A stretch of 57,146 nucleotides of DNA, filler included, from Bipalium vagum (taxonomy: Eukaryota), in NCBI GenBank assembly GCA_037834085.1. It is 3 parts of 3 records of this genome, joined end to end, with 100 filler letters (N's around TTAATTAATTAA, not from the genome) between each part and the next. Parts side by side here need not be neighbours in the genome. Positions count along the whole stretch, not along the records: positions 1 to 20,027 come from JBBMKC010262171.1; 2 more parts are not named here. One strand, 5' to 3'. This document shows positions 1 through 48,498 of the stretch, piece by piece; the stretch's first letter is position 1; every line of letters starts with the position of its first letter. The position numbers and the translations under genes are program-made. The notes beneath the pieces were generated by a model. The model was not told the DNA's origin and searched no databases. It saw nothing but the letters and a program-made list of their open reading frames with translations.

Positions 1-225
1 TAATATAATATATAATATAATATAATAATAACATGCGAAACTGTACTAATGAAATTTCAGTTATAATATATTATGAATAATTAAAATACCTTGCAGATTA
101 ATAAAACCTATCAACTTAATTAAAATTGGGCCGAAATGTTTCAGTTATTATAATCATTATTTCTAATAAGGAAAATATTGATTTATTGATTTATTAATTT
201 AAAAGTAAAATTTAAATAAAATTAG

Positions 226-276
226 GCAAGTCAGTTTTAAATTCTTAAAGTTTTACAATTCCATTTGTATTTATAG
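226..276 (+). other. candidate 51-nt GC-AG intron in the 5' UTR of the 325-1515 gene
   Basis: AG|GCAAGT donor at 225/226 and T-rich tract ending TTTATAG at 276. The length matches the 45-59 nt introns elsewhere in the window. Confidence 0.4.
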
Positions 277-324
277 ATTAAAAACAAAGCTGTAGGTATA
301 CTGACGGTTCGCTAATATACCAAA

Positions 325-1515
325 ATGGCTATGTTAAGAAATTCCGTTAGAGGTGTTCGAAAAACAGTTGGAAGTGAACTGATGAGGGTGGAAGGGGTTT
401 ATATGTACTTGATTAAAAATAATTGCAATGTTGGCGTGTTTTTGGGTCACAAATGTATGAGAGTTTGTACATGGAATTGCCCTATAGATGAAAATCCTAT
501 AAGAGCTTATTTGATAGTAAACAAGTGGGTATATCCCTTAGCACGGTCATTCAGCCCAGTTCACATTAACAAATCCAATGCTATCGTTATGCCGGACCCA
601 TTTTCAAAGTTTGAAGACCCAATTTTTGTAGCTATAAAGTTACCCGTTACCATGACCTTCATGGATAAAAAAAAATTGGAAAATTATCTGGACGTTTTTG
701 CGTATTTAAAAGGGAGATTCAATTGCAAAACAGAAATTATACTTGGTTCAGAAGAAGATAGAAAGCATCTGAAAGGCCTGGATGCATCTGGATGTACCAA
801 GGTGTGGTCAATTGTTGATTTAACAATGGACGATGTTGATGATTTGGAAGATGTTTGGTATTCAAAATCGTACAAAATACCTGCAGCTTTTTCGAGGAAA
901 AATTGTCGACTGTTCAGTAAGCCAAATATCAATCTACTTAGACTTTATGTCACCGGTCCGAAAGATGAAAATCATATTCACATAAGTACTGTACCTGCGG
1001 GAATAAAATTAAACCACATTTTATATGCAGCCATCGGATTTTCTTATAAACGTCTTAAATTAAGAAGGAAATTCCACGAATATAGAGGAGAATTGACAAA
1101 TTTTGACCAAAGGATATTAGGTCACGAAGAATACTTCCGGAAAAAAATGAATCTCTATGATAATTCAATTGATCCGGCTAGTAATGTTATAAAGGCCGGT
1201 AAGGTTTTGGATATAAAGCTTAAAAATTTGGACTTTGAATTGCTGGATTATGAGTTGCGAGAAGAAGCTCTTCCAAGAATGTTTCTCAATTTGGAATTTG
1301 AAGGAGCTTTAATTACAAGAAAAGTCTACACCCAATACCAAGAGGACCGCTATCAATTTTGCGAAATGGCCACCATATCTCAAATCGACATCGACAGAGA
1401 AACTCACACTATTTTGGTACCCAGAGTTGGAGAATTTTGCGAGCATCACAAACCAATGGAAATTCTATTGAGAAATGTAAAAGCAAAGATCTTTGGTACC
1501 AGAACTGATAAATAG
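325..1515 (+). CDS. 396-aa protein with a spartin (SPG20) central-domain-like region, probably duplicated; lacks MIT and senescence domains
   Basis: Long uninterrupted ORF in very AT-rich DNA, with in-frame TAA at 313-315 before the ATG and AATAAA at 1532-1537. Residues ~17-130 (ELMRVEGVYMYLI...PIRAYLIVNKWVYPLARSFSPVHINKSNAIVMPD...FVAIKLP...DKKKLENYL) match the remembered spartin motif series ELILIPNGVQIFFV...PPGFLQVCDWLYPLVPDRSPVLK...GAYMFPD...FVGVVL...DRELFEDLL. Alignment by eye. Confidence 0.75.
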   Translation: MAMLRNSVRGVRKTVGSELMRVEGVYMYLIKNNCNVGVFLGHKCMRVCTWNCPIDENPIRAYLIVNKWVYPLARSFSPVHINKSNAIVMPDPFSKFEDPIFVAIKLPVTMTFMDKKKLENYLDVFAYLKGRFNCKTEIILGSEEDRKHLKGLDASGCTKVWSIVDLTMDDVDDLEDVWYSKSYKIPAAFSRKNCRLFSKPNINLLRLYVTGPKDENHIHISTVPAGIKLNHILYAAIGFSYKRLKLRRKFHEYRGELTNFDQRILGHEEYFRKKMNLYDNSIDPASNVIKAGKVLDIKLKNLDFELLDYELREEALPRMFLNLEFEGALITRKVYTQYQEDRYQFCEMATISQIDIDRETHTILVPRVGEFCEHHKPMEILLRNVKAKIFGTRTDK

Positions 1516-2045
1516 CTTCAGAATATCTTCAAATAAAATTATTTAAATTATAAAAAAGAAATTAATTCTTCATGACTCTATGTATAAAATATATTAACAT
1601 AATATATCATATGTAATTGTTAATAACTATTTCATGATTCTTCTCGTCATTTGTTTATATTTTTACAACTAATCGGTTGCTCTCCACCATCATTTGTCAA
1701 TTTTAGTCATTTTTTATGGGGGATCTTTAAGTTTTCTTAATAACATAAAAATAAAAATAATAAGATAATGTAGCATCTTTCATTCGATTTGGTCCCAGTT
1801 TCATTGTCAATTAAAAATACAAAATAATTTTAATACTAAGAATGCTTGAGAAAGTATCGACATAAAAATAATTGATATTTGTCTTACCATTTCAAATTAG
1901 AAAAATTAATAAAATTTAAAAATAACAAAAAAAATAAAATAAATTAATAAAACATAATAAAATGTAATAAAATTTTTTTGAAAAATTAGCAAAAAATATT
2001 TTAAAAAATCACAAATAATAAATGAACAAAATTATTTAAAATATA

Positions 2046-3341
2046 TTAGGTGTACAACTATGAGTCCGGCTTTTTTTAAAATGATAATAAAAATTTTGTT
2101 TGCATATATATCTAAATTATATTGAATTGATTTATAAACAAAAATATCATATAATTAATAATATCACGAGACAATTGTTTTAATATTCCTTCTTTAAATA
2201 TTATAGTGATTCAAAATGTCAATATTCATCCCAAATAAACGACATTTGTGGGAAGTAATTCTACATTACCAATTACTTTATTACCAAGAAAACTGCAGCG
2301 GAAACGCACACTTGTTTCGAGATACCTATGGAGAACATGATCCTTCGATGACCACATGTAATGATTGGTTTTGTCGATTTAGAAATGGCCAATATGATAC
2401 GAAGGACAAGGAGCATGGGTAGTCACAAAATCAACGTGAAGATAGAGATTTGAGAAGGCTGCTGGACGAAGGCACATGCCAAACACAATCTGATCTGGTT
2501 GTCGCATTAAATGTGACTCAACAATGTATTTCAAAATGTCTGGCAGCTTTAGGAATTATTCGAAAATTAGGAATTTGGATCCCACATGAATTGATAGAAA
2601 GATGCATTGAACAGCGAAAAACAATTTGTGATGCCCTTCCTCAGAGACAAAAAAGGAAAAGTTTTTTGCATCGAATTATCACAGGAGACGAAAAATGAAT
2701 TCGTTATGACAATCTAAAACGCAAAGCAGCTTGGGTGATGCCAGGTGAACCCGGTCCATCAACACCGAAAAAAAATGTCCACGGTTTGAAAGTTATAGAC
2801 TGTATCTAGTGGGTTCAGAAAGGAGTGATCTATTATGAATTTTTGAAATCTTCTCAAAGACTAACTGGTGAATTAATTAATTAATTAATTAATCACAATT
2901 AATTCTTTTGAAGCAAGTTTTGAATGAAAACTACCGGAATGGTTGACTAGACACGAAAAGATAATTTTACAGCATTATAACGCAAAACCACACGTTAATT
3001 AATTTGTAAATAATTACTTAGAATGTACAAAGTGGGAAGTCTTACCTCACCCGCCCTATTCACCAGACACCGCTCCTTTGGATTATTATTTGTTCCGCTC
3101 ATTGCAATTAGCACTTTCCGGAGAGCGGTTCAGTTATCTTGAAGACCTCCAAAATTGGATTGACAGCTAAATGTCATCAAAAGAGCCAGATTTTTTCTTT
3201 CATGAAATTTATTCGTTATCTGAATGGTGGGCAAAGGTTGTAGCTTCCAATATATTTTCAATAAATGTTTTTAAATAAAATTTGTAATAAATGTCTTTGT
3301 TTTCTGTTGAAAAAAAGCCGTAGTCATAGTTGTACACCTAA
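2046..3341 (+). mobile_element. full-length defective mariner, Mos1/mauritiana-like
   Basis: TIRs TTAGGTGTACAACTATGAGTCCGGC (2046) and GCCGTAGTCATAGTTGTACACCTAA (to 3341), with TA on both sides. Broken transposase: MSIFIPNK...[30 protein letters not shown]; multiple stops and frameshifts. Confidence 0.95.
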
Positions 3342-5237: not shown

Positions 5238-8200
5238 TTATAATTTCAAAATCAAAGAGAGATTTATCAAAATAATAATAATAATGATATTTCTGGGTAG
5301 TTTTACTTTTGAACCGATTTTCGTATTCGTTGTACCAATGACCTTGATATCTAAACGTTGTCCGTGGTCGACATCTACGTGAAAATGTATTTATAAAAAT
5401 CGAGTAATAAAAGCTAAAATAATATAATAATCACAAAAGATAACTGATATGACATATTCGGCTCGACGACAGGAATTATCTTTAGTGGAACATTTCCAGT
5501 AAATATCCTCTTTTATATCCCAAATAAACTGTTTTTCTCACTATAATAAAATTTTACATCTTATGATAAAAATTTTCGTATTTTCCTTCTTCAAAATGGT
5601 CTCTGCATTAAATCATTGACTTTTTGTTTATACTGATTATTTGGAAAAATACGGAAATAAGAGGCACAATTTAAAAAATGCGGAAAGGTAAATTGTTTTC
5701 TGAATTTGAGCTTTTTGCAAAAATAAGATTGGACATAATTATGTTTAATTTAAAAAAAATGTAATCCCAAAAAGGTTCTATCAGGAAAGCAAATTCTAAA
5801 GAGAATTAAACAGAGTTACGTTAAATATAAAGTCCCACTGAAACCGGTTTTTGATTGTGTATTTATTTTAATTATAAATGATTTACAACAATAAATAAGT
5901 AAATAAAAAAACATATACAGTATGAGTCTTGTTATAACCACCGCATTTTTTCATGTTGTTTCAATTTATCGTAACTATAATAAGTATTTTGTGAACAGCG
6001 TTTCTTGTTGATCATAAGTTTAGTGTGAAAAAATTAAAACTATTTAAATAGTTTTGATTAACAATTAACAATATTTTCAACTGGTGTGGTGTATGACCGC
6101 CTTTAGCATCTATCATTTGGTGCAAACGCTTATAGATACTGTCAATAAATCTGTGGAGCATCTCATAAAAATTTTCATTATGGAACCAGATCCTGTTGAT
6201 TCTGATGAGATCCTTTTTCGTTGTGTGAGTCATCTCGCGTAAATTACTCTTCATAATGCTCCAAATATTTTCAATTGGGTTCAGATTCTGCGAATTTCCT
6301 AACCAAGACAGGAAGCTGATATTGTTGGAAGACAAAAATTAGAAACCACTTGGGACTTATGGCAGGATGCTTAACGTTTCTGTCCGGTGTTTGCCAAACG
6401 CATTTCTTGTTAACTGATTGACATTCTAATATGCTTTCATCACTGAAGCACACCTTCCTCCAGAAATCAGATGACGTTGACAATTTTTCAAGATTGCAAG
6501 AAAACTTAAAAATACTTCCAAGCTAATATTCCTGATAAGATGAACAAAATATGGGATTTGATTGATGAAATTCAAGGAGAAAAGCATCTAGACAATTGAA
6601 AATCACACTTTATTATGCGTCAAAGAAGTAAAAATTGTGATAAATAGGTTTAATGAATGCATTTCTTGTGATGTCTTTGATATTGTTATATTAATAGCTG
6701 TTCATATTATTTTTTAATTTGAGCATTTGAAAAAAATTAGGATTGGCTGTATATATATAAATAAAACTGATATTTATTATTTAAAAGCATAAAATAATAA
6801 AACCTTTAGAAAAATAATAAAGAAATTAAAGAAATACAAATAAAATAAAGGCGTTTAAAGAAGTAGAATGAAATTAAAAGCATTAAAGATATTAATTTTA
6901 TAAAATTAAATTAAAATGTGTATCTTTAGCATCCTATTGGTTAAAATATATTTTATTTTGTGATTAGTTTATTTATTATTAAAATGAACACTTATTATAA
7001 AAACGTTACAAAGGTGAAATAGAAAAATTATTAAAAATTACTCAGTGTTCATAATAGTTTTATCTAAAAGCATTCTGCATCATTTCATCAACAGTCTTAT
7101 AAAAGTTTTTTTCTGTTTATTTTATTAGTTGAAAATATTTAGGGATTATTTTTTGTAAACTTTTATACAAAACAATATTTTAATATCTGTATTAGGTGTT
7201 ACTCTTGACAATAGGGACTTCTTTTTAACAATGATAAGTTCAGAAAAAAAATTAAAATTTTTGGAGTGGATTTCATTTGTAAAAAACGCGCTTTTCCATT
7301 AGAAGATATTTTTAAATATAAATAAATTAAATTAAATCAAGTCTATGGAAATAATAAATATCCACAGTGACAAATATTACGATCTTGATAAGATAACATC
7401 TCAAAAAATATCTCGCCCATTAAAAAAATCATTTGAATCTCTGTTAATGTTGATATTATTTCTAAGTATGTATTAATATATTATAATTGAAGAAATATAT
7501 AAAAAAATAAAAATAAATAAAATATTTTTTTCAATAATTATTGAAGGGTTAAAATTTTTTAATGATTTATTCATTTTTAGAAAAAGTAATTTGCAAAAAT
7601 CTACAAAGTAAATCCATATAAAACTGCATAGGAGAAATGTCAAAGATAATTACCGTCATAATCAAGAGTTACTTTGCAGTAACTCAAATTTTAATGTTTT
7701 AAATGTTGTTATTAGAACTGAACCTCCTTTTTGAAAATTAGCCCTAAATATTTTAAGGTTTGCATTAGGTTGTTTGGAAAGTCACTTTGCATTTTTAGTA
7801 AAAAGTAAGATTATAAGTGTTATTAGTAATAAATATTTTAATCAATGATGTATTGTCCTTTTTGTTCCAAGAACTTCTGCCATCTACCAGGTAATTTGAA
7901 TATCCCAACCTTTAAAATGACTTAAGTGATTTAAATTAAGATTTAAAGATAGGTATAAAAAAGCGAAGTGACTTTCCGAACAACTCAATATATATTCTTC
8001 GAATTTTAACTCAATAATCTAATCATTTCATGGTCAGGACACAGTGCATTTAGATTATTGTTTTTCAATGTAACACTGAAAATATCAGGTGTTTTCATAT
8101 GAAACGTTCAACCCGGAGATATGAAAATTGATGTGTATTTGCATTATGAACAAATAACAAAACATTATTCAATGAAATAGTCACCACCTAAATCGACTGT

Positions 8201-11200
8201 TTTTATTATAAATAAATAATGTCTTTTATGAAGGTCTAATTTTAATGCATAGAAAGACATTAAAGCCCAGATGACAGAGGCCCATTTGATTTAGAGCTGA
8301 TTTTGCACAAAGTTTGCAAAGCTTCTGGAAAGATGAGTTAATACAGCAGGCGAATATGGTGAGAGAGTAAAAACTTCCTTTTCAAGATCCTTTAATTTTG
8401 ACAAAAATTTAAGCTACACATGGTATGGTATTTCGGTTTATGTTTATTAACCAAAGAAGACTATTTGACAGTTTCTAGTGAATTGCTTGAAGTAAGATTT
8501 TACAGTAAGATTTTACTTTGATAATTTCACAAGGCTCGACGAATGAATAATTCCTCAGTTAGACCATCATAATTTTTTAAAATTATTTTTTGTTTTCCTG
8601 GGTTTTTAATCTTAACAATTTATCCAATTATTATATTTTTTGTGTACCATTATCATAAAAGATCCATTTTTAATTGCAAGTTATAGTGGTTTTAAAACTT
8701 CTGCACAAGACACAGAGACTAGTTAATGAATCATGTTACACTTCTATTCGTAGAATCTCGTCATCAGTTGTGGTGAGCAGATCTCCACGAGTTTCATTTT
8801 TCATGCAAAAATCGCCTTTGAAGAATTTCCAAACCATCAATTTATCGTCCGTTGATTTCTTTGAATTGTTCGAAATTGAATTTCTTTGCCTGTTACCATT
8901 GGACTTGTTTTTGAAAATGAAAAAATGTTCTTATGAGAAAACAAAGCGTAATTTTAACTTGTTACAAGAAATATCAATAATTATTTACAAATATTTCAAA
9001 TATCCGTAAAAATTAAATAAAGAAATGATTTTAAAATGATATCAATTTCCAATTGTTAAAAAATCAAATGTTTCATATGAGAACACAGGATATTCATATG
9101 ATTGGCACGATTATCTGACACACGAATTACAAAAATATTTAGCGTAAATCAATTATTATTCTATTTTGATTTTGTAACTTATTATTTCATAAGTTTAATT
9201 TATAAAAATATTTCTGTAAAACAAACATACGCGGAGAGAGAGAGAGAGTAACCCAAGAATTTTCGCAAAATCATAAAACATTTTTAAAGCATCTTTACAT
9301 AGATTGTAAAACAATGGCGGGTGTATGGACAAGAGATTACAAAGTAAGTAAATGTTTAATTTATTGATTTAAACAACTGGACAATGAGATCTTCATCAAA
9401 ACATGATTTGATCTTATTTTAGAATTAATTTAGCGATTAATACACGGAGGTCTCAAGTTTATTTAAAAGTTATTAATAAAAATATTTCCTGATTGTATAC
9501 ATAAATCACCTGGTGTGATATCAGATTTTAAGCCAGACCCCTCAGTTTTGTCTGTAGAATTCTCAAAATCAGGAAAAATTAAAAAATTATTTCTGTCCAG
9601 CTCCTTTAAGTTGAAAACATTCAACGTTTCCTCGTAATACTTTTCCGGCTTTAGTTTTATTATTGATTCATTATTTGATGATTTGTCAAACAAAATTCCC
9701 ATGGAGTCGTTGGATGGTTTCGGATTATTTTTTTCGTTATTGTAATATATTTGATTGTCGAAAATAAACTTTTGGAGAATTTCGTGAATCTCATCCATTT
9801 TGTAACTTTCGTTTGAAACAATGGGCTGTTCGTTTGCTCTTTTGCTTTTACAAAAGGTACACTTCTGCCACAAAAGACTGTTATAATGAAAGGGTTATGT
9901 TAGCTAAAAATAATAATAAACATAATACGTTGAAGATGCACTCCCGTTCCAGCATTTCTCAGCATTCGACAGTGGAGACACCCAACTGCCCATCTTACAT
10001 ATAGAAGTTGCAAGGTCTTGCCATAGTAATTTATCCTGTCTAGCCTGTTGAAAAGTAAAATAAAAGACAAAAACTGATACAAATTTGACCTCATTGTTTA
10101 TTATTTGATAAAATGTGCGGCTGGAGGCTCTTATTGAATCGGAAAATATATTTTTTGTTTTATCCAGATTTCTGTAATGTGTCTGTCCTATGCATGGTTG
10201 GGAATCCTGAGAAAGGTTGGGTTTGTACTTTTCAAATAAATATTTTTTAATACTTTCTGATTTTCCTTCTGAAGCACTGAAAGGGATTGAAGAAATTTAT
10301 TGTAAAAGCTTTGTATTGCATCGAGAATATCTCCGCCATTTTTAAAATTTGCAAAACGTACTTCAACTTTTTCTGAAATTATAAATGAGTCTGTCTAAGT
10401 AGAAAGGTTATTCGAAAATACCGAAGATCTCTTTCCAATATCCTGCAATACTTCGGAAATTAGAGAAACATTGACTGATGACTTCCAGGCAAACTGAGAA
10501 ACAGGGAATATTAAAAACATGTCCTGCACAATATGCACAATGGTACATTCGAAATATGTTGATAGAACAGTCCCGGGACAAGGAACAATTCGGACACTAA
10601 ATATATTTGACATATGGTAAAACAAGTAAATTAAAGGTATAAGTGTAATTTATAAAAACAATCAATGTGTAATGACATGATCTTACAGATTTTTTTCTTT
10701 TTAATTTTTCTTTAAAATAAGTATATATCAACTTTTAGAGAGTCGATCATCTGGGCTCAATAAAATGCTTCGGTTTATATTTTGAATGGGACACACTTTT
10801 TAATCTTATGTGTTGACAGTATATGGAATAATATTGAAAAAATTTAGTTATTTTATAACTACTTATTAATACTACTTATAAAACAAATTATTAATTTATC
10901 AATAACTTAGTCAAGATATGTATATATGGAACCTGAAATGAATATATTTTTACGTAAATATCTTATTCATTATCTAAAAGCACGTGGAAAATTAAAGGTA
11001 TAAAATCGAACGAACCTATGTGACAACCAAATATAACCTGTATATGATAAATAATATAATTCCTGGATTGATAACTTGATAATCATTTGTAAGACTTCTT
11101 ATTATTAAAATGGGAAATGTGTGAAAATCTCTTACTTGACCTGTTCATTGACATAATACTTCATTATAAATAGACTATGTACTATGTAAATATAGTATGT

Positions 11201-17859: not shown

Positions 17860-19065
17860 TATAAATCCTTTCAATTCCCGGAATACGTCCACCATCTTTT
17901 ATGAATTGGTTGTGGAGTTTCATATTTTGTAAACTACAGACTTTTTCTCACATATTTCATCTTTGATGATCACATTTTCAAGAAATGTTTCAAGTTCAGT
18001 TCTTTTCAATAAAGATTCACAAATAGAAATTGTGGTGATTAATTTTTTTCAAATAAATTATGAGGCATTCAAATATCAAATTTTTATCAAATATCAGACT
18101 GTTTTGAAGTGATCGAAGTAGGTGATAATCGGTTGGTGTAAGATCGGGACATCAAAATTTAGTTCCTCTAACATATTTCGGTTGGCTAGATCCATATGTG
18201 ATCTAGCATTGACCTGGTCCAAAACAATATTATTTCTGCTGGCAAATTCAAGACACTTGTGTTCGGTGGCCTGCTTCAATTCTGAATTTATCTGAATTAA
18301 AGATCTTATTATCAGATAAGATCTCATACAAAATTATTCCCTCGCAGTTCCACCAAACAGATAGCATTACCTTCTTCGAGTGTAAACTGGCTTTCACAAG
18401 AGTTGATGGAGGTTCTTTGATCTAAGACCACCACTTCTTGCGCTTAAAATTATTTAACAAAATCCACCTTTCATTCCCTGTAACCATGTCATTTTAAAAT
18501 GAATCTGTATTGTTTATATTCAATAGAGTTTCGCAAGCATTTAAACGATCTTTTCTCGAATAACTCATGAATTATCCATGAAGTTAGGTTGCTGAGCATT
18601 TCAAGTTTGCGCAATTGTCTCGACATTGTTGATTGACCTAATCCAAGAGTGTCAGTAATAATTCGTACTGTTAGATACCGATCACTTTCGATTAGCCTTA
18701 ATAAATCCATGTCAGAAGTGCCAAGCTGTGTCCCATAACGTGGGCATCGGAATTTTTTTGTTTAAAATATAGTAACCAGTTTTGCCTCGTGAAAATATTA
18801 ACAGAATCTTCGTCGTATACATCATATATCTTCTTTGTCCTTTAGGAAACATTTATTTCCAAAATGTACTTTATCTTCAGTCATTTATTTGTTTGTAATT
18901 TTTAAAAAACGCGTTTTTTCAGGCAAATGATTATTACAATTGATTTAAATAAACAACAGCAGCAGTTAATATAAAAGATTATTTATTTAAGGGAAATTTA
19001 TATCATAAGTTAGTGTAAATAATAAAATAAAATAAGAAACATAATAAATTTATGCACCAACCCAA
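17860..19065 (-). mobile_element. mariner remnants (mellifera-type TIR), two juxtaposed fragments
   Basis: TIR read on the minus strand TTGGGTTGGTGCATAAA at 19065, with TA outside it. Peptides LIESDRYLTVR...SWIIHEL and RNNIVLDQVNARSH. A second fragment ISICESLLKRTE.ETFLENVIIKDE at ~17960-18035. Confidence 0.8.
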
Positions 19066-25459: not shown

Positions 25460-28400
25460 CTACGACGACATTAAATATTTCTGTAAAATGTCGAATACCA
25501 AAAAATATTAAAAATCACTCAATTTTTAATAACATTAATACTAATTAAACTTGTTTAAGTTATAAGAAAATTATTAAATACTAATACATTAATTAATATT
25601 AAATAATAAATAAATACGAGATAATATTTAATGATAATAAGTAATACTAATACAATAATGTTTATTATAATGTATTTTATATTAATAAATTTCTAAAAAC
25701 TTCATTTAAATAAAATATGCAATAGGCAAATTTTAGAAAACATTACTTACTTATTATAAACAGAAATAAAATTTTTAAATTATTTTTTATTTCAAAAAAT
25801 TCTTATTATTAATTAAAAATTAAAAAGTATTTTTAAAATTATTAATTTACATTTTCATTTAAGTATTAATAATTTAAAATCATTTTTAATGATTTGTGTG
25901 ATTAATTTTTATTAGTTATTCTTCACATAAATATTTCTTTAACTTCGGATTACTGAATAAACCACTTAAAGATTACATTCTTTCATGGTTTAGCACTTTT
26001 TGGGCCATTTTCGCCTTCCAAGCATTGTCAAAATATTATTATTCTTTCAAATTTCATTTTGTCATTTTAATTGTTTGAATTATGTTGTGTAATTTTAAAA
26101 TAATTATTTTAGAGAGAAAACAAACATCTTTTCAATAAAAAAAATTGATTAAACGTTAATTTTTCAAAATCGAAACTGATTTAATTAAAACTGATTTATT
26201 TTAATTCCATATCTTTATCGATTTTAATTTTTATCAGGTTCAGCAGACTTTTTATTATCATAAAAGGTTCATAAAAATGAGCTACATATAAAATACTTAT
26301 ATTATTCAGAAAATTATCAGAATCATTTTTAATTATATATAATATCACCACAATAATAAACTATTATTATTATTATTTTAATAATTATATTTTATAATTT
26401 GTAATTAATTTAAAACGGAGTAAACTTTTTAAATATAAAAAAGAAATTCAATTACTTTGGTCCACTTCAATAATTTATCCAAGGGCTGATCTTTACGAAA
26501 AAGTTCAGAATTCCATCCTGGTAATGGACCTCTATATTGAGGAATGATGAGTCCAACAGAAGTAGGAGATAAAGGCCTATCAGCAAATCCACCCATTGTT
26601 CCACGATAATATCTGCCTGTTTGTAGAATCCCAGACAGAATATCATTAGGAGGACTAATCATATGTACTTCTTAGGTATCAATTTGATTAAGTAATGATC
26701 AAAATAATATCAACAAACTTTTTTTATTCAAGTCAATATTAATACTTTGTTCTGATTGCGGTCTTCTAAGGCAAAAGGTTTCTGGCTGAGGTCCTATATT
26801 TTGTGATGTTATTCTACTCACTCTAATTGGTTGTTGGTTGAACTTGGCATTTTGATTTGTCATATAATAATTAGATGTTGGTGGATAGTCATAAGCTGGG
26901 AACCCATTTAAAGGATTTATGGGACTAAACCCAGAGTATGTCAACCCATTATTGATATTTAAGTTTTTATTGGAAAGTTCTAAAGAAAAAAACTTAAAAA
27001 GGTAACAAAGACATTTGTAAAAATGTGAAAATCTTTCAAGAAAGATCTTTATCATAGCATAAGTCATCCGCAATGCATGAAATTATTCATAAATTTAGAA
27101 AAAAGATTCAGAAAATTAAGTATTTTAGCCTCAATAATCAAAAATCCGAGCAAGAAATTTTATTATTTAAACAAAATTTTATACAGATTCGTTGTTCAAT
27201 TATTATATCCATACTAAATTTCGCAATAATGATTCTTTCTGTATTATTTTAAACCTAAAAAAGAAAATCTCGTAAGCGTTTCTGTCAATTTTGAAGGATA
27301 TTTGTGTCTGTATAAAACCAAAAAATCATAAGAAATAGTGAATTTTAAATACATTTAAAATTAAATTTAATTTACTTCTTATACACACTATTATACATGG
27401 TGGGCAAACAGTAGGGCACCAAAATATAAGAAAATTTATTTGTTAAGTGCATCAAATTATTACAATTTGACGAGGTATGATTAAATTTATTGTTAATTAC
27501 ATTTTATTTTATATCTATCATTTATATTATTGATATTATGACGTTATCATTTGATCAACGAGTTGAACTCAAATTTATGTGTGGTCGCGATGGTACTACA
27601 AATAGATCTGTGACTAAAAGATTTAATTAAATGTTTCTCACACAATAGTTGGGCAACTGCTGACTAAATTTCGGGAAACTGGCAATGTCCTAGACAAGCC
27701 AAAGAGAGGATGGTCCCGAATTCTTGAAGAAACACACATGCGCGTAATTCAAAAACATCAGAAAAGCACAATGAAATCCGTGCGGCGATCTTCACTTTTT
27801 GCCTACCATGTATATAAATTTCGCTTAGTTTAAAAATTTTTTTTGAAAAATGAATTTCGTGTAATGATACATTGAAAAAAATATATAAAAACATCAAAAA
27901 ACTTTAATTAGTGAGAAGATATGTTTCAAACCATTAAGATTTTACTGTCTGTACGGTGACCTTTCAACTGCAAAATTCAGTTTTAGAAAAACTGAGAACA
28001 GTTTCGTAATAAACACAGAATCGAGTGTAATGAAAATTTCTGGATGCCGGTGCTTTAACATCAGACATCTTCCTCCAAATTAATATAATCACTAACTTTG
28101 TTTTTGTTAATTTTTTCTAACAAAGAAATTCTCAAGTTCAAATAATCAATAATCAAAATAAGGAAGGCTGAGTAAGATAAGAGGTTTTTTGAATCCCAAA
28201 AAATTATATATACATATCGTAATTGATTATTAAAAGCAATCAAATAAAAAAATATTGTTCACTAGACTAATATACTATATTTTAATGGGTTCCATTTAGC
28301 AGACAATATGGGAAAACCTTTGAGTTTTAATTATTTATAAAATTGATATTTTGATATTTACCAGTCATCAATGGAAAAAGTAGATAAAAGCAGAACAGTA

Positions 28401-31400
28401 AAAAAGTTGTTTATAAAAAATTATTTATTCGGATTCAAAGGGACTTTATTCCTAAACTAAATTTCACGAAAACTCTAAAAGCAAATTTAGGTTGCAATTT
28501 CATAGCCAAAATTGACAATTTTAAGAATCATTTTTGTGCATGAACTTTCGAACGACATTTTTGACAATTATTTTTAATTTGGTGATTTTATGAAATTATA
28601 AAATTAACTGAAATAATATTAATACTAATGACATTAATACTTTAATACAAGGTAACAGTTGATAATCTGTATCCATTTTTATAATGTTTAAAAGAAATTT
28701 TTGTTTGGTGAATTGAAAAAATATATATATATAATAAAATAAGTTATCATTTACTAAATATATTAAGATTTTTTATTTTAATTATTATTATTAGGGTGAA
28801 CCAAAAGTTCGCGCATTTTTAGACCAAAATTTCAACATTTAACAAAAAACAAAATAAAAATCAAATTTCAAAAATAAATCCTCTTTGATTTTACTGTCTT
28901 AAGCCATCTATTGGCAAATTATTCGATGTTACTTTTTTGTTCCGTTTTGATATCCCTTATATCACTGAAAGAGCTTCCTCGCAAAATATGTGCCATTGAC
29001 CGGAATAGGTAAAAGTCAGATGATGTGAGATCAGGGCTGTGAGCTGGATGCAGTAATAATTCAATACCATGTAGTTCTTTGATTTTTTCCTTAGTCTTTC
29101 TGGCCGTATGTGCTTTGGCATTGTCTTTCTGCAAATATATTTTCGGTTTACCATTGAAGAGCATTTCTCGCATAAAACCTCATACATTCGTTCAAGCTGA
29201 GCGCAATAGACATCCGCATTGATAAATTCTCTGTTTGGAAGCACCTCAAAATGGATTACACCTTGGTAGTTCTACCAAAAGCACAATAAAACCTTTTCTG
29301 AGAACCTGTTCCGTTTTGGCACAAATTTTGCTGTTTGACCTAGATACGACCTTGTACAACCATTGTTTTTTGCTGTCAGCATTGTAGAAATATATCCACT
29401 TTTCATCACAAGTGACTACTTTTCTAAAGAAACGTTCGTGACAAAGATTTTTCAATAATTTCTGACATCTGTTGTTTAGCCTGACTTTTATTTTATTGAT
29501 GAGGAACTTCTCGACCGCTTTGTTGACTTTTACAAGTTCATGAAGGTGTGCCGGACTATGGATGTTTTAGGAATATCTAACTCATGTGATAGCACACGAC
29601 TGCTGGTTGATGGATTATTTTCAAATGCATCGAGTATTGCCTTTTAATTAACGGTTCTACGTAGTCCAGAACGTCAGTAATCCTCGAGATATTTATGACT
29701 TTCATTGAATGTTTTAAACCATTTTTGAGCTGTGGGAATGGATACGATACATCTTCCTTCAATATCACATATTTTTGTAGCGGCTTCCTTGGCATTTATA
29801 TATTGCTTCCAATAATGGCGCAAAAGCATCCGAATTTCAAAATTGTCCATATTGCTAAAATATGAAAAAAAAAATTCTTAGAAAAATGTTTAAAACCGAT
29901 TTTATCTAATATTAAAGACAATTTAAAAACGAATAAAATTATTTCTTAATGCGACCAATAAAATCTATGGTCCTTAAAAAATACTTTATTTACAGTATAC
30001 AAAAAACACGAATTTTTGGTTCACCTTAATATTATCATCATCATTAAAATATTAATTCTCGATTTTCATAAAAGTGAATTCACGCAATAACAATAACAAG
30101 GTTATTACAGATAGTGAAATTTAACATTATTAAATTTGACAGGAATTAAATTAAATACTCACTAAAAGATAAACAACTCAGTCTTGACATCATTATGTTT
30201 AGGAAAATACGTTGTAGGAGACGGAAAAAAATAAAAGAAACTATATTCAAATAAAATGAAATATAGTCGAATTTTAGTCTGTGTTTTTATGAGATAAATT
30301 AGGAAAAAAATTGGGTTTTTTAAAATTTTAAGATAGATTGTAATAATCAAATAACAGAACAAATAAAAATAAAATTCTTAAAATTTATCATTAATTTGAA
30401 AGATGTCAGAAAAATATATTTTAATTAGAAAATAAAACAATTAAAATAAAACTTAATTGATTCCTCAGGAAAAACTTGAATTAAAAATGAAAACTTCAAC
30501 TAAAAATTATATTTTCGAAATCTTGAATTTAACGAACATACTTTAATATTGATTAAAAATATCAATAATTAAAGAGCATTTATTAGAAAAATAAGGAAAT
30601 AAAAGCAAATGACAAAAGTTTCAGCGTTAATTTGTCCGATTTATACGATTTTCTAAAAGGTAGTCAATGATAATTTTAAAACCTAAATAAATTTATATGG
30701 TTTTAAAATTTTTATTGTTTTATTAAATAATAAATTAGAACAGTGATCTAGAGTTGAGAAGTTTAATAGCATATTTATATAATTATATATATATTTTATA
30801 TAATATTTTTATATTTTAACACAATTGAAAATATATTTATTATTAACAGTATTACTCTAAAATTTATTTTTTAAAAATCTGTATATTATAATTTACTTTT
30901 CTAAAAAAATCCAGACTAATAAAATTTCCTGAACAAAGTTATTTAGTTTAATTATTTAATATTATGAAAATAAATTTAGTATATGTTTTTAAAATATAAT
31001 TGTTATTATGAATAATAAAATATTTTATTCTTCGTTATTTCAACTATTTCTTTACAACAAAAATAATTATATAATTTAATTCCTTTAAGATTAAATGAAA
31101 AAATATTAAGAATAAATTGATAGTGACTTGCATTAATGATTAAAACTTCTTAATCAAACTTTATTTTTCACATCTTTAATAATGTTGATTATTATATTTA
31201 TTATTATTAATTTTTTTAATTTCTTTTTGTTTTTATTATGTTTTTATAATTGTATAAAATCTTCTGTTAAAAATAAAAATACATATTATTTAGATTTTAA
31301 ATTTCCTAAATGTCAAAGTAATTAAATGTTTATTAAAAAATTTTGAAATCAAATTTCCTAATTATTTTACCAGTACATCATATGAAAAATATTTTATTTA

Positions 31401-34400
31401 TTTTGTAATTTATAGAATTTTTATTATCACAGAAAAATAATATAGAAAATAAATTAATAATAATTACATTAAACAAACATTTTATATAATAGAATTTATT
31501 TTCAAATTCACTTAAGTTAGTTTCAATGTTTTTTTATTATTTCATTTGTGAATTTTATTCATTTAAAGTGATATGTTGCAGTTTTCAATAGCAATATGTT
31601 ATATAGCTACATTCAAACCTGAAACTACAATATTAGGATGCAAATTTTTTTTATAATTCTCTGTATAACAGTGAATTTTTCTAGCAAATTCTAGAAAACA
31701 ATATACTAATATTAAAAATAAAATTATAATTCATTACCACATCAATAGGAAACAAAACTGAGTTACTGATAAAAATATATTAAATTTATAAATAAAAAAG
31801 AAATTATATTAAAAAAATATTAAGTATTATATCAATTAAAATTTTACAAAAATCTGTAAAGAATATCTGATTTTTTTTCGAAATAATTATATATTACCAT
31901 AAGATATAATGATAAAATTTAACAACGGAAATCAACATTAGTTGAACCAAAAATCCTAAATGAAAGAAAATATTCAGTATTTTAAAGAAAACCCATTAAA
32001 ATTTCAATTGATAATATTTATAACAAATAAATATAATAAAAAAATACTGGAATTTTGAGTAAAATTAATTAAATTTTAACAGAAAAAAATTCATAGAATT
32101 AAAATTTTTGAGTTCAGTAAGCTCCCTTATAAAAGTAATCAATAATAATAAAATAATAAAAATGGTATTGAATTTCTAATTAACTTGAAATTAAGGAATA
32201 AACCATAGAAAAGATTAAATCATTAACTATCTTTCATGCTAATTTTATGGGTGTGTCTTTTTCTAAAGATAAGTTTCATTTACCTCACTTCACAATCGAA
32301 AGTTTTTTACCAGTTTCAAAAATTTCTTCAGTTATCAGAATAGAATTAATAATTGAAATTGATTAAAATTATGAAAACTGATTTTGAAATAGGACATAAG
32401 AAATGAAAATTTGTTAATAATATTATTATTATTATTGATGTGATTATTAATAAACTACTGGAGTGCCTCGTATACAAAGGATTAGGCCTTACCTATAGAT
32501 AGTTCTACAAGATATTGGTGACGTGCTTATTCTTGGTAATTAACGCTATTCTATATTCAATTAATTTATTAATAAAATATTACTGAAAATCTCAAATAAA
32601 AATTTTTAAATAATAAATTTGGTTAAGTATGAGCACTTAAAAAAGTAAAGTTATTTTAATAAATTTAATATTCATAGACTATTAAATATAACTCACCTTG
32701 TCTCTGTACCTCTGCTCCACTATTTTTAACTGTCCGATTTAACAAAGTCTGTCCATGCATTACTCCACTGGTATTCATTATCGATTCTGAACTAGCACCA
32801 GACAATGAGGTCCGACTATGACACCATTGTTGGCTTGTCAAAGTTTTGCTTCCGCTAATTGATTGAATATTTTGCGAATTATTCACAGCATCGTGCAAGA
32901 AATCATTGCTGCTCAACTTTCGGCGTACTAGACACATCATATCTTTATCATTAAAATTCTTAAGTTTTTTCTTTCACCTGCAGTTTTGTTAACTGACTCT
33001 ATTGGTTGGATAATTGACTCTGCCTCAGCTCCTCTACGTGGTACAGATCTCGGATTAGTTCTTGGAAATGGACGATGTTTTACTGAAGGTGTTGAGGACA
33101 GGCCCTGTAAAGTCTTAGATACTTCCTTTCTGGATGTAGCATTGTCATTTAAATGACAATGTGATGTAAATTTTGTTGATATTTCGTTATTTAAGCTCTA
33201 AAATAAAATAATTGTATTCGGTAAATTTTTTATTTTATTAAAAATACATGGTCTGTCTATAAAGTACCGAGACTGAATCAAAAAAGAATATTTATATATA
33301 TTTATTTATTTAATCCATTACATTTATAATTTATCTCCTTCAAAATATTCTCCTTTGACAGGCACACATCAAAGCATTCTTATTTTCCACTGGTGGAAGG
33401 TGTATTGAAGTTCATTTTCTGACAACTGTTGTAATAACTTTTCTGTTTTCATTTTAACAGCTTCTAAAGACAAAATGAGTTCCTTTTAGCACAGATTTTA
33501 TTTTTGAGAAAAGAAAAAAATCAGAGGGTGATAAATCATGGGAATATCGAGTGTTGTAATTCTTTGTCCAGTGTTGTAATTCTTTTTTCAACTAAAAACT
33601 GCTTTATAGAGAGGGCTGTGTGTGAAGGGGCATTAACCTTTATGTAGAAAGAAACAATGTTACAGGGGTTCTGGGCGTAACTTTTTGTCTCAATTTTATC
33701 AATAATTCTTTGTAATATTGCTGGTTCAATGTCTTACCCTCAAGTAACCACTCAGGCAAAATGATACCCCTGGATTTTTTGATTTTTGGAGAAGAGGGGG
33801 TTTTCAAATGACGGGTTGTCTTTTTGGTTTTGGATCGTATTGAAAGATCCAAGTTTCGTTACAAGTAATGACTTTTTAGAAGATCAAGATCTTCTTCAAT
33901 ATGCTCCAGCAGTGGCACAAATTTCCACGTGTCGTTCTTTTTATTCTGTTGTGAGAATTCTAGGAACCATTTTGGCACAAACTTTTTTCATATGGAGATC
34001 CTCTCGTAAAATTTTCCACACAGTGCCTTTATCAATAATTGTCATCTCAGAAATCATTCGGACACTCAGTCGACGGTCTGCTCGAACAATCTGGCCGATC
34101 TTTTCGTTGGTTCTTGATGTTGCCGGTCTCCCAGGTCGTTCGTCATCTTCCACCTCCTGATGATCTTAAGTGAATCTTTTGTGTCACTCGAACACTCTGG
34201 CGCGGGAGATGCAGTCCTCTTCATAAGCCTACATGATCATCTGCAAACACTTCGTTATTGTTTTGTTTAGTTTCACCAAGAATTTCGATGTTTATCTGTA
34301 CTAATTGTTATTTACCAAATTAAACTTTATGGTGTTTTACTATTATTTTTAATTCTTTAATTTTCGGCCTTCTAAATAAAAACAAGAAATTAAATTTTTT

Positions 34401-34788
34401 TATCATATAAATATTTGTAATCTTTTATATTAAAATTCGATGCAACAATACAAAGCAACAGTTTAATTTATTTTTCTAAATTATCATAAAATTTGTGATA
34501 GGTCACACTTGATAAAAAATATAAAAAATAATGGAAAAGTTAAATAACTTCTAACCGTACATTTTTCTTACCAAATGGCGGCGATTGAGAGATGTCTGCA
34601 GAGTGAGTTGCCTCTGTACTTATTGAATGAACCACAGGAGATCGAATTGGCTTTTGTACAGTTTTCACATCATTACTACGTTTAGCAGTTCCATAATGGA
34701 ACACTTTCCGAGCTTTCATAAATTCCAAATTATTATTTGTGTGAACTATTTTAGAAATTGATGGTTGAATTTTTTCTTTAGAATTGAT
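25460..34788 (-). CDS. unidentified multi-exon protein, Ser/Asn/Pro-rich and probably largely disordered
   Basis: GC-richer open blocks bounded by AG/GT: 34788 to ~34561, 33197-32978, 32942-32697 (donor G|GTGAGT), 26979-26719, and 26670-26456 (after a 48-nt intron). Candidate last exon 25480-25460 (KYLMSS*) with AATAAA 14 nt later. Phases are consistent from 32942 onward. The 5' end is unresolved (possibly the 37672-37899 block). No family recognised. Confidence 0.65.
27396..27810 (+). mobile_element. 415-bp internally deleted Tc1/mariner-superfamily element (DD41D/rosa-like N-terminus)
   Basis: TA|CATGGTGGGCAAACAGT...ACTTTTTGCCTACCATG|TA inverted ends. Interior reads MTLSFDQRVEL...LTKFRETGNVLDKPKRG. 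Confidence 0.85.
28791..30029 (-). mobile_element. full-length defective mariner
   Basis: TIRs TTAGGGTGAACCAAAAGTTCGCG and CACGAATTTTTGGTTCACCTTAA, with TA flanks. Fragments VVTCDEKWIYF, INADVYCAQL and KDNAKAHT...HPAHSPDLTSSDFYLFRSM. Confidence 0.95.
33247..34310 (-). mobile_element. defective irritans-type mariner within an intron
   Basis: TA|CATGGTCTGTCTATAAAGTACCGAGAC terminus. Peptides EDDERPGRP...KKVCAKMVPRILT and GKTLNQQYYKELL. Confidence 0.9.
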
Positions 34789-34818
34789 CTTTTAAATAAA
34801 ACATATTGCTAATTAATT

Positions 34819-38142: not shown

Positions 38143-39268
38143 CGAAGTGGGGTGAAAAGTTCTCGGCCTGATAAAGAAAAAACATCAATTTAATAAAATC
38201 TATCTTATTTTTGATAATTATAATCATCTAGGTAATTGTATTATGATTTTCATTTCATTTGTTTAAATAATTCTGTTGCAGCACTTGTTTGAATTCACCT
38301 ATAATTGCAGTTTTCAAAAAATGGATAAAATGGAGAATCGCGTTGTGATAAAATATTTCGTATTGAAAGTCTTAAGTCCAACGGAAATCAAAAATGAAAT
38401 CAATTCAACACTTGTTGAGTCTGTTCCTTCATTCTCTACAATAAAAAAATGGGCAGCTAAATTTAAATGTGGTCGCACATCAATTGAATATGATGACCAT
38501 TCTGGAAGGCCATGCACAGCAACATCTGATGAAATTATTGGAAAGATTCACAATGCAGTTCTGGATGATCGTCGTATAAAGATTCATAAACTTGCTGATA
38601 TTGTGAAGATTTCAGAGGAACGCGTTCGATACATTATACATCACCATTTAAATATAAAAAAACTATCTGCAAAATGGGTCCCGCGTTTGCTAACCATTGA
38701 TCAAAAGCGTCAAAGAATGAATCTGTCAATTCAATGGTTACAGATGTTTCAGTCGAATCCAAATGAATTTCTACGGCGATTCGTTACTGTTGATGAAACA
38801 TGGGTACACCATCATACCCCAGAAACAAAACAGCAGTCAAAGCAATGGGTAGAAGCAGGTTACAGTGCACCAAAGAAATCAAAAGTTGTTCCTTCAGCAG
38901 GAAAAGTCATGGCAACCGTTTTTTGGGGTACAAAAGGCAATAATATTGATTGATTATCTAGAAAAAGGGAAAACCATTACAGAAGTATATTATGCTTCAT
39001 TATTGAGCAAGTTGAATGACGAGATCAAGAATAAACATCCTCATCTAGCAAGAAAAAAGGTTCTTTTTCATCATGACAACGCACCAGCTCATTCTTCAGC
39101 AGTTGCACAAGCTGAACTCCATGAACTTCGATATGAATTGCTTCCTCATCCGGCGTACTCTCCAGATTTGGCTTCCAGTGATTTTTTCTTCTTTCCAAAC
39201 TTGAAGAAGTCACTTGCAGGAAAACGATTCAGATCAAATATGGAGGTTCAATGTGAAACTGAATCATA
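38143..39268 (+). mobile_element. near-intact Himar1/irritans-like mariner (DD34D), one frameshift, 3' end lost in the gap
   Basis: TA|CGAAGTGGGGTGAAAAGTTCTCGGCCT left end; ATG at 38321. Motifs WVPRLL, VTVDETW and HHDNA...YSPDLASSD, with 34 residues counted between the last two Asp. Single extra A near 38939 (GGC A ATA ATA). Confidence 0.95.
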
Positions 39269-39368
39269 NNNNNNNNNNNNNNNNNNNNNNNNNNNNNNNN
39301 NNNNNNNNNNNNTTAATTAATTAANNNNNNNNNNNNNNNNNNNNNNNNNNNNNNNNNNNNNNNNNNNN
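39269..39368. other. 100-nt scaffold gap with artificial TTAATTAATTAA linker (39313-39324)
   Basis: 44 N, linker, 44 N. Confidence 0.95.
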
Positions 39369-41150: not shown

Positions 41151-41381
41151 AAAATAAAAAATATTTTTAGATTAAATGTTGTGAGATTTCATTTTTTGAA
41201 ACTAATGGAACGATCCAATTTTTAACTAAATAAATTTTTATAATTATTATTTTCTTTTCTCTCATGAACGCAAAGAAAATGTCTATCTTTAATATCAATT
41301 TTGTTGACGGTGACTACTTAGAAGTTCAGGTTTCATCAAAGTCTCAATTGACATTGTTAAATTATTACCGCATATTTTCAG

Positions 41382-44300
41382 GGGAACGATCTTACATCGA
41401 TATGACCTTCTTGTGTGGTTTCAGATCCTTGAGTTATCCGGAAATGGAGAGTTATAATTTTCTATTTGAAAAATGATCTCTTTCACATATTACCCTTCTA
41501 GATATATTTCAGTACCTGTTGACCATTCCCATGATGCCCCTTGTCACGGGGTTTTTATGATCCATCAGGGCTTACAGCGACGGTTTTCGGTGACTATTGT
41601 ACACGAACCCATTACTGATAATGAAGAAGCGGAGAGTTCTTCATTGTTGTTTCACAGCGTTCGAGAGGTCGTAGTTGGCAGGGTCCGAGATCGACCTGAA
41701 TATGTGGACTTGGACGACTATTCAAAAGTGCTTTCTCTTAACTTGCTACCTGCACATTATATAACCAGCGTTGGGGATGAAAGGTTCCGTTTAATGTCAC
41801 TTATTATTTTATTGTTTTTATTACATTAATTATTTTATTAATTTTACCTTAAATTCGAATTATTAAACTTTATTAAAAAGATAAATATATATTATATTTA
41901 ATTTTATAATAATATTATTTTAATGTTTTTCTAAATGATATCATCGTTCAAATATTTTTCAAGATAATTCTGTGAAAATTAACATTCAATTTATGTTACT
42001 TTCAAATAAAAGTAGAATAAAAACAAGTTTATCATACAACAAAAAATCAGATTAGTGAAAGCTTAATTGATTTCTGATTCAGATATTAACATTTTTAGCA
42101 ATTAATCAATATTTTAATAGATAAATAATATTGATTTATTAATTAATTCAATAGCAAATCTCATAATTTTTCGACTTGATTTAATAAGTGGGGTTTATAA
42201 TTTAGAAGAGCTCAAATAAAATTATTTTATTAACTAGGACTTATTTATTGAATAGGGTTTATGTTTTGGAAACACGGTAGTACTTTTGATAACTTATGTC
42301 GACTCACTATGATGCGACTTTAGGGTTAAGAAAATTTTTAGAAAATATTTTTTGACGATTTCATAAAATTGATTATGTCAACATTCAACAAAAATTGACA
42401 GATCAAAATAACAACATGAATAGGGCCCAACGATATTTCATTCCACTTTCGAAAATGATTTGAAAACAAAACTAATTATTATGTTTCTTAAATTTAGGAC
42501 ATAAATCATTACGCTGTAAAAGGGAACGTGGTAAAATTTTAGAGATATGAACATATTTTCTATTATAAGTACTCATTGAAATATTTTCTTACTTTTATCG
42601 GTCGAAAGAAACGACCCAGAGAAAAGACAATTTGAAATAGTGAAAATAAATTAGTACGATTGTTGCGTTCTACTGAGTCTCAAGATTTTATTTGGTGCTT
42701 TATTAGTTGGTCTTTAAAGTAAAAGTGAATGATAATAAACGAACAAAATAATTGATAAAAACCATATCATAAATCAATTTTCATAGAAATACTTGATTGA
42801 TTGAGCCATCAGGAATATTGGTATATATGAACTTGGAAAATTATTTTTATGTCCAGAGTTTTTAAATTATTTGATAAATAAATTGTGATAAGTTATTAAC
42901 GTTTTTCTCTTAAGATGTCATAATGCAAAGCTGTTGGTCTTCCTGAGCCCAAAACATCTAAATTACCGGATCTGAACTTTTAAATCACCTTTGACATCTG
43001 CGAACGTCCAATGATTCTTGATTGACATTGGAAATGTTTTTCGTTGTAACTGTTGCGCTACTGCCCTCTTTAAATTCAAACAGTATACCATGCCGGATAT
43101 GCAATCCATCCGGTATTTTAGTGGCCATTAAAAGTAAAAATATAAAAAAAGTTTAAGATTCGATATTTTACCACGAAATAAGTTACTTTACCTTTAAAAT
43201 GTATTTAGATTGATTTTAAAATTAGCAATCAATAATAAATATTAATAATGTATTTAAACTAAAAAACGACATTACTTTCCGGTCCACCTAATATGAATTA
43301 CTCAAAGAGAGATTTGCCGAAGGTCAGAGGTGAAAATCTTTATATCAATTTTTTAAAATGCACGAAGAACCTGGTAAGTATGATTTTGATAACGAATAAA
43401 TTCGGTGCTCATTTAATAAATGTTTATAGTGAAAAGAATATCTTTCTTTAAATATCTGAATCAGACAAATAGAGAGGCGTAAAACCAGTCAGAGATTCCG
43501 TTTTGGTAAACTTTAAATACTAAAATTTTTGACATTTCAGTGAACAGGTCACAGACATTACAAATGCATATTTTCATATGTCTCATTAATTTGATTTTTC
43601 GTAATAAAAATGGTTGTACATTAACTTTTATTCATATTAACACTCAATAATATTAGGTACATTTAATACGAGATATACTTATCTTTAGAACCATATATTT
43701 CATGTTGTCATATACGTGGTATCTTCATGTCTAAGTATAGAGAAAGACTAAAGAAATCCCTTGGGTTGGCAAGGTATTATAAGGAGTGTCTGGGTGGTCA
43801 TTTAAGGATCATTGTATGTGAGATACCATAAATTAATATAGGAAAACAAATAATATTTATTTATTGTATAAACATTTTTATTAATGAATACCTTTAGCAG
43901 TCCTTGTTGGAACATGGTAAATAAAATTTGATTTAATTTATTTACTTAGTCTTATTTATTTTATTTTCATAATAATATTTCAATAATAATTAATAATATA
44001 TTATGGTATCTGTGGTAGCTGCGATTTCAACAAATTCAGACATATTTTAAAGATTTTATTGATTAATGACAAATAACAATATTAAAACAAACTTTACAAA
44101 GTCAATAAATTTTATTACGTATTCGGTTTTATTGTAAAAATTTTAATGTGCAAAAACTTTTAAAATTAAAGATATTTTAATTATTAGGTTGTAACATATG
44201 AATTGTCCTTATTTAAAACTGATTTTTATAAGCAACATATGCTCAGTAATAATTGATGAAAATTAAAGTTTGATATATTGATTTATAGGTTAGAAATTGC

Positions 44301-47300: not shown

Positions 47301-48438
47301 TCTTATAATAAAAAATGAATAACTGCCAAAAATGGTTCTTTAGCAGGTTCCTTTCTAAATCTCAAAGGATTACTAATCGGAATATATTTTCAGTTAAAAA
47401 ATAAATCACCGCCATTTTTTATTTATTGATTTATTTAAACAAATAAAACTTCTATCAACAGCATTTCTTTTTAAAGAATTCATTGAAAAATCCACAGGAC
47501 TTTCCGGATGACCTAATATGTAGCACTACAACTGTGACAGATAAGATTATAAGTGTATTTGAACTATCTCCATATTGGAGTCTGTTTAGAAATCAAATTT
47601 GATTCGTCTCGACCTATTTATGTCATAGACACGGTCTTCAATGAACGCAATTGTCTTATTTTAGATGAATACTCTCCTAACATGCTTCGGCTTCATCTTT
47701 GTTTATTGATAAAGACCATTCCCATTCAGGAAGTCACAGAAGAGCCAGGCGCCAACAAAATTACAACAGTATATATGTTCGAGGTGAAGAAAATATAAAG
47801 GGATGGCTTCCAAGAAGTGATTCGTTAATATTGGATCACCAGTGGCAATTAGAGAAGTTGACTAAACTTCAGATGGTTTGATACCTTTCATAAATATCAT
47901 TATTAGTATTCCTACTTAACTTCTTTTCAGGTAGAGAAAGTCCGTCACATTTTACTACTTAGAGAGAAGTTAACAGAAGCAGGTCGATATAATGATATCA
48001 AACAACTCGATGAAAAGGCCAGAAGGGAGCAGATTAAGCAAAACCGTGCTTATAGAAATGCCCTATGGCATAAATGTACCATGGTCGTCAACAAATATAA
48101 CTATTCAAATTCTGATAGCTGTGCTCAGTTAGACTATATGACCAACGTGGATAGTGGTGTGGTCTGTGGGTAAAGATTGGTTATATAACAGCCGAATAGG
48201 GTTTTGAAGATATTTTCCAGATGCAATGACAAGGATTCTGGTACCACAGGCGAGGAAGACCTAATGACCACCAGCTTAATCATGCCGGGTGATGAGGAAA
48301 TACTCAACGAAGAAGGAGGAAGAGAAAAGCTGCTAACGTCCCGCTGTGTTGAATTAATGAGCATTTCAAACAAATCAAGCCAGCCGTTTCCGTCTAATGT
48401 GAACAAGGTTGTTTCTGAAGACCTTCATCTTATTTCTG

Positions 48439-48498
<60 letters not shown>

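Follow-up and report, generated by a model that had tools for sequence, protein, structure and literature searches.

We describe here a protein of Bipalium vagum with a new architecture: a spartin-derived PH domain, in an arrangement of domains restricted to flatworms, together with a second domain that belongs to no known family. The gene lies near the beginning of a stretch of AT-rich eukaryotic DNA of 57,146 nucleotides (GC 0.28; assembly GCA_037834085.1), which is referred to below as the window, and its features are listed in Table 1.

Reading frame

The protein, P0001, is 396 residues long and is encoded by an ATG open reading frame. A sequence-only reading of this DNA had described a clean frame of this length, closed on its 5' side by an in-frame TAA, and this is correct, as are all of the motifs quoted in that reading, every one of which is found in the translation. 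The frame is much longer than expected by chance, the longest ATG frame in 300 base shuffles of positions 1–3000 being at most 125 residues. It also stands out in composition, with a GC content of 0.36 vs 0.18–0.20 in the flanks. The first 17 residues include four K/R and no D/E. The open reading frame is a real, conserved gene.

Table 1 Features of the P0001 gene, with positions counted along the window
Feature	Positions	Strand	Basis and remarks
In-frame TAA upstream of the start codon	313..315	+	Sequence itself
Single open reading frame	325..1515	+	Whole gene as far as discernible; gap-free vs P0002
Short basic N-terminal leader (aa 1–13)	325..363	+	85% identical to P0002; pLDDT <50
Spartin-type PH-like domain (aa 14–131), as assigned	364..717	+	hhalign, motif-free controls, predicted fold
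W-x-Y-P-L signature stretch, common to family and spartins	508..557	+	1 match in window, 0/100 shuffles
Variable linker (aa 132–200), much longer in cestode relatives	718..924	+	51% identity to P0002; mostly low pLDDT
Conserved C-terminal domain (aa ~201–377), no known family	925..1455	+	HMM, model, database searches
R-x-Y-x-x-G-P-x-D-x-x-H motif opening the C-terminal domain	940..981	+	Full motif in 8/14 proteins scanned
C-x-H-H near the C-terminus, putative metal ligands	1438..1449	+	8/14 proteins; pLDDT <50
AATAAA	1532..1537	+	17 bases 3' of the stop; weak evidence, DNA there being 18% GC

The N-terminal PH-like domain

On the basis of profile comparisons and a predicted fold, residues 14–131 are assigned as a spartin-type PH-like domain, homologous to that of spartin over its whole length. 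No spartin was retrieved when protein databases were searched with members of the family (word-based, phmmer and profile), and a PH fold is in itself no proof of kinship with spartin. Metagenome contigs were therefore scanned for spartins, using a degenerate pattern derived from the family's own motif. This gave 37 loci, 13 of which have spartin-like frames; the other 24 were left out of the analysis. Two of the scanned spartins carry the Pfam Senescence domain PF06911 (E 1.7e-34 and 1.2e-32), and one of these proteins, P0016, also has a weak MIT match. Invertebrate spartin frames, intact or once-shifted, are seen in the metagenome contigs at L025:281-1975 (-) and L035:223-1991 (-). The cluster to which the L025 protein belongs has no name beyond 'hypothetical protein' among the matches listed (15 of 54 members).

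The N-terminal block of the family matches the spartin PH profile with an hhalign probability of 98.0% (E 1.7e-13, 112 columns), the profile being shallow (two long sequences and exon pieces, Neff 2.3–3.0) and containing no flatworm spartin. At each of three gap settings, the score was reached by none of 150 column shuffles and none of 150 block shuffles. Because the reference spartins had been picked by their motif, the comparison was repeated without it. With the motif columns removed, the probability was 83.4% (E 8.4e-6). The part to the left of the motif gave 93.4% (E 2.6e-7), and aligned correctly within whole spartin (E 1.6e-4), while the part to the right gave a weak match when used alone (probability 0.8, E 0.07), with the register unchanged. 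Within the signature stretch, W68 and Y70 are kept in all 11 rows of the alignment. The sequence-only reading had placed a spartin central domain at residues ~17–130, very close to the boundaries given here. It had also called this domain poorly characterised, and here it was less accurate: PMC10801920 already terms the spartin domain PH-like.

AlphaFold2, run with an alignment of 15 sequences, gave a model with a mean pLDDT of 67 and a pTM of 0.72 (with two sequences the pLDDT was 31). Residues 14–131 are predicted to be all-beta with one closing helix, which is the PH fold, mostly with pLDDT 85–93. When the model was searched using Foldseek and VIA-align, the top ranks were PH-superfamily domains (RanBD, EVH1, Dcp1, Rpn13 and REC114), matching about 100 residues within aa 13–127 at Z 6–7.4. 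The best Z values for these PH-superfamily members (EVH1, RanBD, Dcp1 and the Rpn13 PRU domain) were 7.4 (rmsd 2.8, 108 residues aligned) and 7.0 (rmsd 2.7, 97 aligned). Sequence identities to these domains are 2–16%, and Z-scores below 8 are a measure of fold likeness, so that what is indicated is a common fold and no particular function.

Spartin modules not recognised in P0001

The MIT domain binds ESCRT-III, and the PPxY motif recruits HECT ligases. The MIT domain (PF04212) has no match in any of the 15 family members; merely 13–17 residues precede the PH domain, and there is a stop upstream. The PPxY motif is present in both of the spartins that were fetched (P0016 and P0018) and in none of 14 family proteins. 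The Pfam senescence domain PF06911 was matched by none of the 15 members, nor by any of three slices of the C-terminal part. The absence of MIT and senescence domains claimed from the sequence alone is thus upheld, in the sense that no recognisable senescence domain is present. The PPxY motif of spartin is described in PMC10415183.

The linker and the C-terminal domain

The C-terminal part of P0001 is a separate conserved domain, kept independently of the clade to which P0001 belongs. An HMM built from eight relatives outside that clade matches residues 203–377 with 68 bits (E 2e-20); 500 shuffles reached at most 3.3 bits, and two spartins gave -2.2 bits or no score. The domain has no sequence match in Pfam, NCBIfam or PDB. 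Sequence searches of the PDB with P0001 and with the family profile gave no matches, and with the spartin P0016 matched the MIT piece of spartin alone.

The model predicts helices at residues 199–210, 231–253 and 286–300, and strands at 305–309, 329–336 and 344–351, with pLDDT below 50 for the C-terminal residues 355–396. Matches to the N-terminal domain took up the fold-search results, and none was centred on the C-terminal domain, which such searches barely test. In the motif that opens the domain, G211 is conserved in 10/10, P212 in 9/10 and D214 in 8/11 rows. Further conserved marks are a G-x-P-x-x-F motif and the helix 286–300. The C-x-H-H motif is absent in six of the 14 proteins, three of which are too short to reach it.

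The possibility was noted before testing that this is a diverged senescence domain, in which case P0001 would be a MIT-less spartin-like protein that may bind lipid droplets or lipids. The C-terminal domain occupies the place of the senescence domain, in the same order, and has moderately amphipathic helices (226–255 and 280–305). The best hhalign match always falls on one stretch of 21–34 residues, pairing aa ~286–312 with the last part of the third senescence helix; however, it has E 0.11–0.19 and a probability of at most 0.5%, with a shallow senescence reference profile (Neff 2.3). An ungapped block of 31 columns outscores every other diagonal in spartin, and is equalled by 1% of 2000 column shuffles, but the limits of the block were picked after looking. 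The first C-terminal block missed the expected diagonal. The idea that this block pairs without gaps with the beginning of that domain thus failed its test. Nine gapped tests gave z from -0.8 to 2.1, eight of them at shuffle level, while the one good score (reached by 3/150 and 0/150 shuffles) is in another register; in five of the nine, reversed profiles score higher. The content of G+A+S+T is 0.14–0.27 in 12 family rows vs 0.38–0.43 in senescence domains. The senescence domain consists of four helical segments, according to PMC10801920, and the strands predicted in the C-terminal domain are unlike it. As noted above, there is also no PF06911 match. On balance, a heavily remodelled senescence domain is possible but rather unlikely.

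Relatives and species distribution

A word-based search found one relative (P0002) among 1672 candidates, and a phmmer scan of 1.84 billion representatives found ten more at E ≤0.001. A profile search added two and a cluster look-up one, making 14 that were aligned. P0002 also has 396 residues, of which 77% are identical to those of P0001, and aligns over 396/396 positions without gaps, with the same first Met and last residues. P0003 has the same C-terminal end as P0001. The identity between P0001 and P0002 is 85% in the N-terminal domain, 51% in the linker and 81–89% in the cores of the C-terminal domain, a pattern that suggests purifying selection on two domains.

Seven of the 14 relatives carry the name of an organism, and all seven are from parasitic (neodermatan) flatworms: Protopolystoma xenopodis, Hymenolepis microstoma, Hydatigera taeniaeformis, Taenia asiatica, T. 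solium, T. crassiceps and Heterobilharzia americana. Among those named, the restriction to one lineage suggested from the sequence alone therefore holds. The groups represented are a monogenean, cestodes and a trematode. Both domains are kept in the monogenean and cestode relatives, and the PH part only in the trematode one. The seven proteins are all named as hypothetical, unnamed or uncharacterised. In a tree, 13 family rows form one clade, far from three spartin rows; the branching within the family is unresolved. The most distant match, P0012 (363 residues), has the PH-like domain of the family behind a 70-residue leader. Its C-terminal part has no match to the C-domain HMM. P0012 may represent a third architecture, or else belong to the family only very distantly.

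A scan of metagenomes for related loci found none, and the ESM Atlas gave nothing above noise level, the top rows scoring 0.87 with whole P0011 and 0.79 with the PH part of P0006. The supplementary expression data of PMC6821492, PMC11116493 and PMC12900441 had no entry under the T. solium or GenBank identifiers. A literature search of journals outside subscription, mostly without their supplements, found no paper on the family: there was nothing under six of its accession numbers, nor under SPG20 combined with duplication and parasites, and three papers pairing spartin with Schistosoma were off topic to judge by their listing. In broader searches with thousands of results, spartin was absent from the top rows listed. 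The family may nevertheless appear, without a name, among the flatworm families in the gene-family tables of helminth genome papers.

Comparison with known systems

The closest known system is spartin (SPG20), a lipid-droplet protein containing MIT, PH-like and PF06911 domains, whose PH-like domain is homologous to that in P0001. P0001 differs in having no MIT domain, PPxY motif or recognisable senescence domain, and has in place of the last an unrelated-looking conserved C-terminal domain. The plant ERD7/SEN proteins and fungal spartin-like proteins, as described in PMC10801920 and PMC8079945, are likewise without MIT and have the PH-like domain first, followed by a second domain similar in length to that of P0001. 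By these descriptions, however, their second domain is PF06911, which targets droplets or mitochondria and to which P0001 has no match.

There is also a likeness to yeast Inp1 (PF12634), a protein that tethers peroxisomes and whose RanBD-like PH domain follows a basic N-terminus (PMC7659721). P0001 similarly has a PH-like domain with RanBD among its nearest solved folds, a basic N-terminus and no senescence domain. PF12634 has no match in P0001, in its N-terminal domain, or in the 15 family members, and P0001 differs from Inp1 in that its C-terminal part is a conserved domain predicted to be largely folded. Inp1 is a precedent for a similar PH-like domain serving as a tether outside spartin. 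A true spartin PH-like domain, at L025:1091-1462 (-), has no Pfam model above cut-off; its best weak match is to Inp1 (E 0.033, below cut-off), a hint of kinship between the domains of spartin and Inp1. PMC5091641 mentions neither spartin nor Inp1.

Proposed function and origin

Our preferred interpretation is that P0001, consisting of a spartin-type PH domain, a variable linker and a new domain, derives from a copy of spartin made in a flatworm ancestor, and that it acts as a cytoplasmic adaptor or tether and not as a lipid-transfer protein. We consider this reasonably likely. The origin would be a duplication of spartin, and possibly a retrocopy: the frame of P0001 is unbroken while the fetched spartin genes are split into exons inside the PH domain, so that retrocopying or intron loss is possible.

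As P0001 lacks MIT, PPxY and any recognisable senescence domain, the functions of lipid transfer, ESCRT-III binding and HECT-ligase recruitment have probably been lost. In spartin itself, lipid transfer and droplet binding reside in the senescence domain, and no lipid transfer is seen with the PH domain by itself (PMC10801920, PMC10415183 and PMC8079945). The nearest solved folds to the PH-like domain of P0001 (EVH1, RanBD, Dcp1 and Rpn13) bind peptides or proteins, and by extension from these fold neighbours, which are the basis for the adaptor role, the domain may bind a partner protein or peptide. The C-terminal domain could then attach to another partner, or to the surface of an organelle, and a metal at C-x-H-H might stabilise it. 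The architecture would thus be that of a two-ended adaptor, in which a flexible linker joins the protein-binding PH-like domain to the other conserved domain. The sequence-only reading had proposed an adaptor or a competitor of spartin function; the first of these is plausible, and nothing here supports the second.

The copy would not be an extra one if the P0001 type were instead the only, orthologous spartin of flatworms, rebuilt beyond recognition. The searches made retrieved no flatworm spartin sequence, and the family has the appearance of being near single-copy in the named species. Against this, supplement 2 of PMC6225667 has a gene model named 'Senescence associated protein', HmN_000599800, in H. 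microstoma. This may be a canonical spartin, although it is possibly the same gene as CDS26448.1, the H. microstoma member of the family (annotated 'conserved hypothetical protein'). We regard a rebuilt orthologue as improbable. According to the same supplement, the expression of HmN_000599800 is ~80-fold higher in maturing segments than in the scolex-neck, and is low in larvae, a pattern that is odd for a housekeeping spartin.

Genes nearby in the window are multi-exon and the trematode record, P0009, is just 133 residues long, as might be found if the frame were a dead copy or only a single exon from a larger gene; but P0002 keeps both start and stop, P0003 keeps the stop, the cores have diverged far less from P0002 than the linker has, and annotated cestode models of 406–445 residues contain both domains without any match to MIT or senescence, all of which makes such a reading very hard to sustain.

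Equally remote is the proposal of the sequence-only reading that the protein is a tandem of two spartin central domains, with a second, eroded copy in the last ~90 residues: there are three predicted strands within aa 305–351, and an in-house profile aligner, run with three gap settings, puts the proposed register first among local alignments at one of them, but that register is at shuffle level (z -0.1, with 69/150 shuffles as good), as are all six tests in which spartin PH was compared with the C-terminal block or with the last 100 residues (z -1.1 to -0.1); hhalign gives a probability of 0.1–0.2% (E 0.32 at 0.2%) for the C-terminal half against spartin PH, and at most 0.24% for the N-terminal block of the family against its C-terminal blocks; the HMM of the N-terminal domain matches each protein once, a negative-scoring scrap in P0004 aside; and the model predicts helices before aa 305 in place of the first PH strands, with a helix-rich secondary structure over aa 199–351 that is unlike that of aa 14–131 and does not suggest a PH barrel. 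The tandem arrangement was accordingly rejected, the C-terminal part having no profile similarity to spartin PH or to the protein's own N-terminal domain.

Other features of the window

A multi-exon kinesin-3 gene resembling KIF1/unc-104 is found at 41234-49182 (+), with DUF3694 exons at 41470-41829 and 45395-45853 and a PH exon at 48733-49182. A Mariner/Tc1 transposase (HTH_48, Transposase_1 and DDE_3) lies in two overlapping frames at 38267-39320 (+), and among many decayed mariner-like pieces are those at ~2210-2960, 6012-6522, 18489-18761, 28919-29877 and 33536-34165. At 56230-57146 (+) there is a Gag-like frame followed by zinc knuckles in another frame (zf-CCHC, E 5.6e-11), which is likely to be an LTR retrotransposon running past the end of the window. 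Several exon-like frames are present at 8736-10649 (-), with a weak match to Glypican at 9904-10296 (E 0.0023, below cut-off). Ser/Thr/Pro-rich exon-like frames with no Pfam match, possibly a single unannotated gene, are found at 26429-27082 and 32665-34791 (-).

Significance

The finding is a modest one, in that it adds a new architecture and no new mechanism. The C-terminal domain is conserved and unannotated, and has so far been seen only in these worms. If it were a senescence domain that flatworms had remodelled into a compact, self-folding alpha/beta domain, which is possible but rather unlikely, nature would have supplied a foldable relative of a module for lipid transfer that neither crystallisation nor structure prediction has so far resolved, and P0001 would represent a parasite-specific variant of spartin tied to lipid handling in the worm. 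To our knowledge, no independent part in lipid transfer has been clearly assigned to the central PH-like domain of spartin. The fact that this domain has been kept through the whole history of the parasitic flatworms, without MIT, PPxY or senescence domain, implies that it has a separable function that is under selection, and the conservation within the family marks which of its residues matter.
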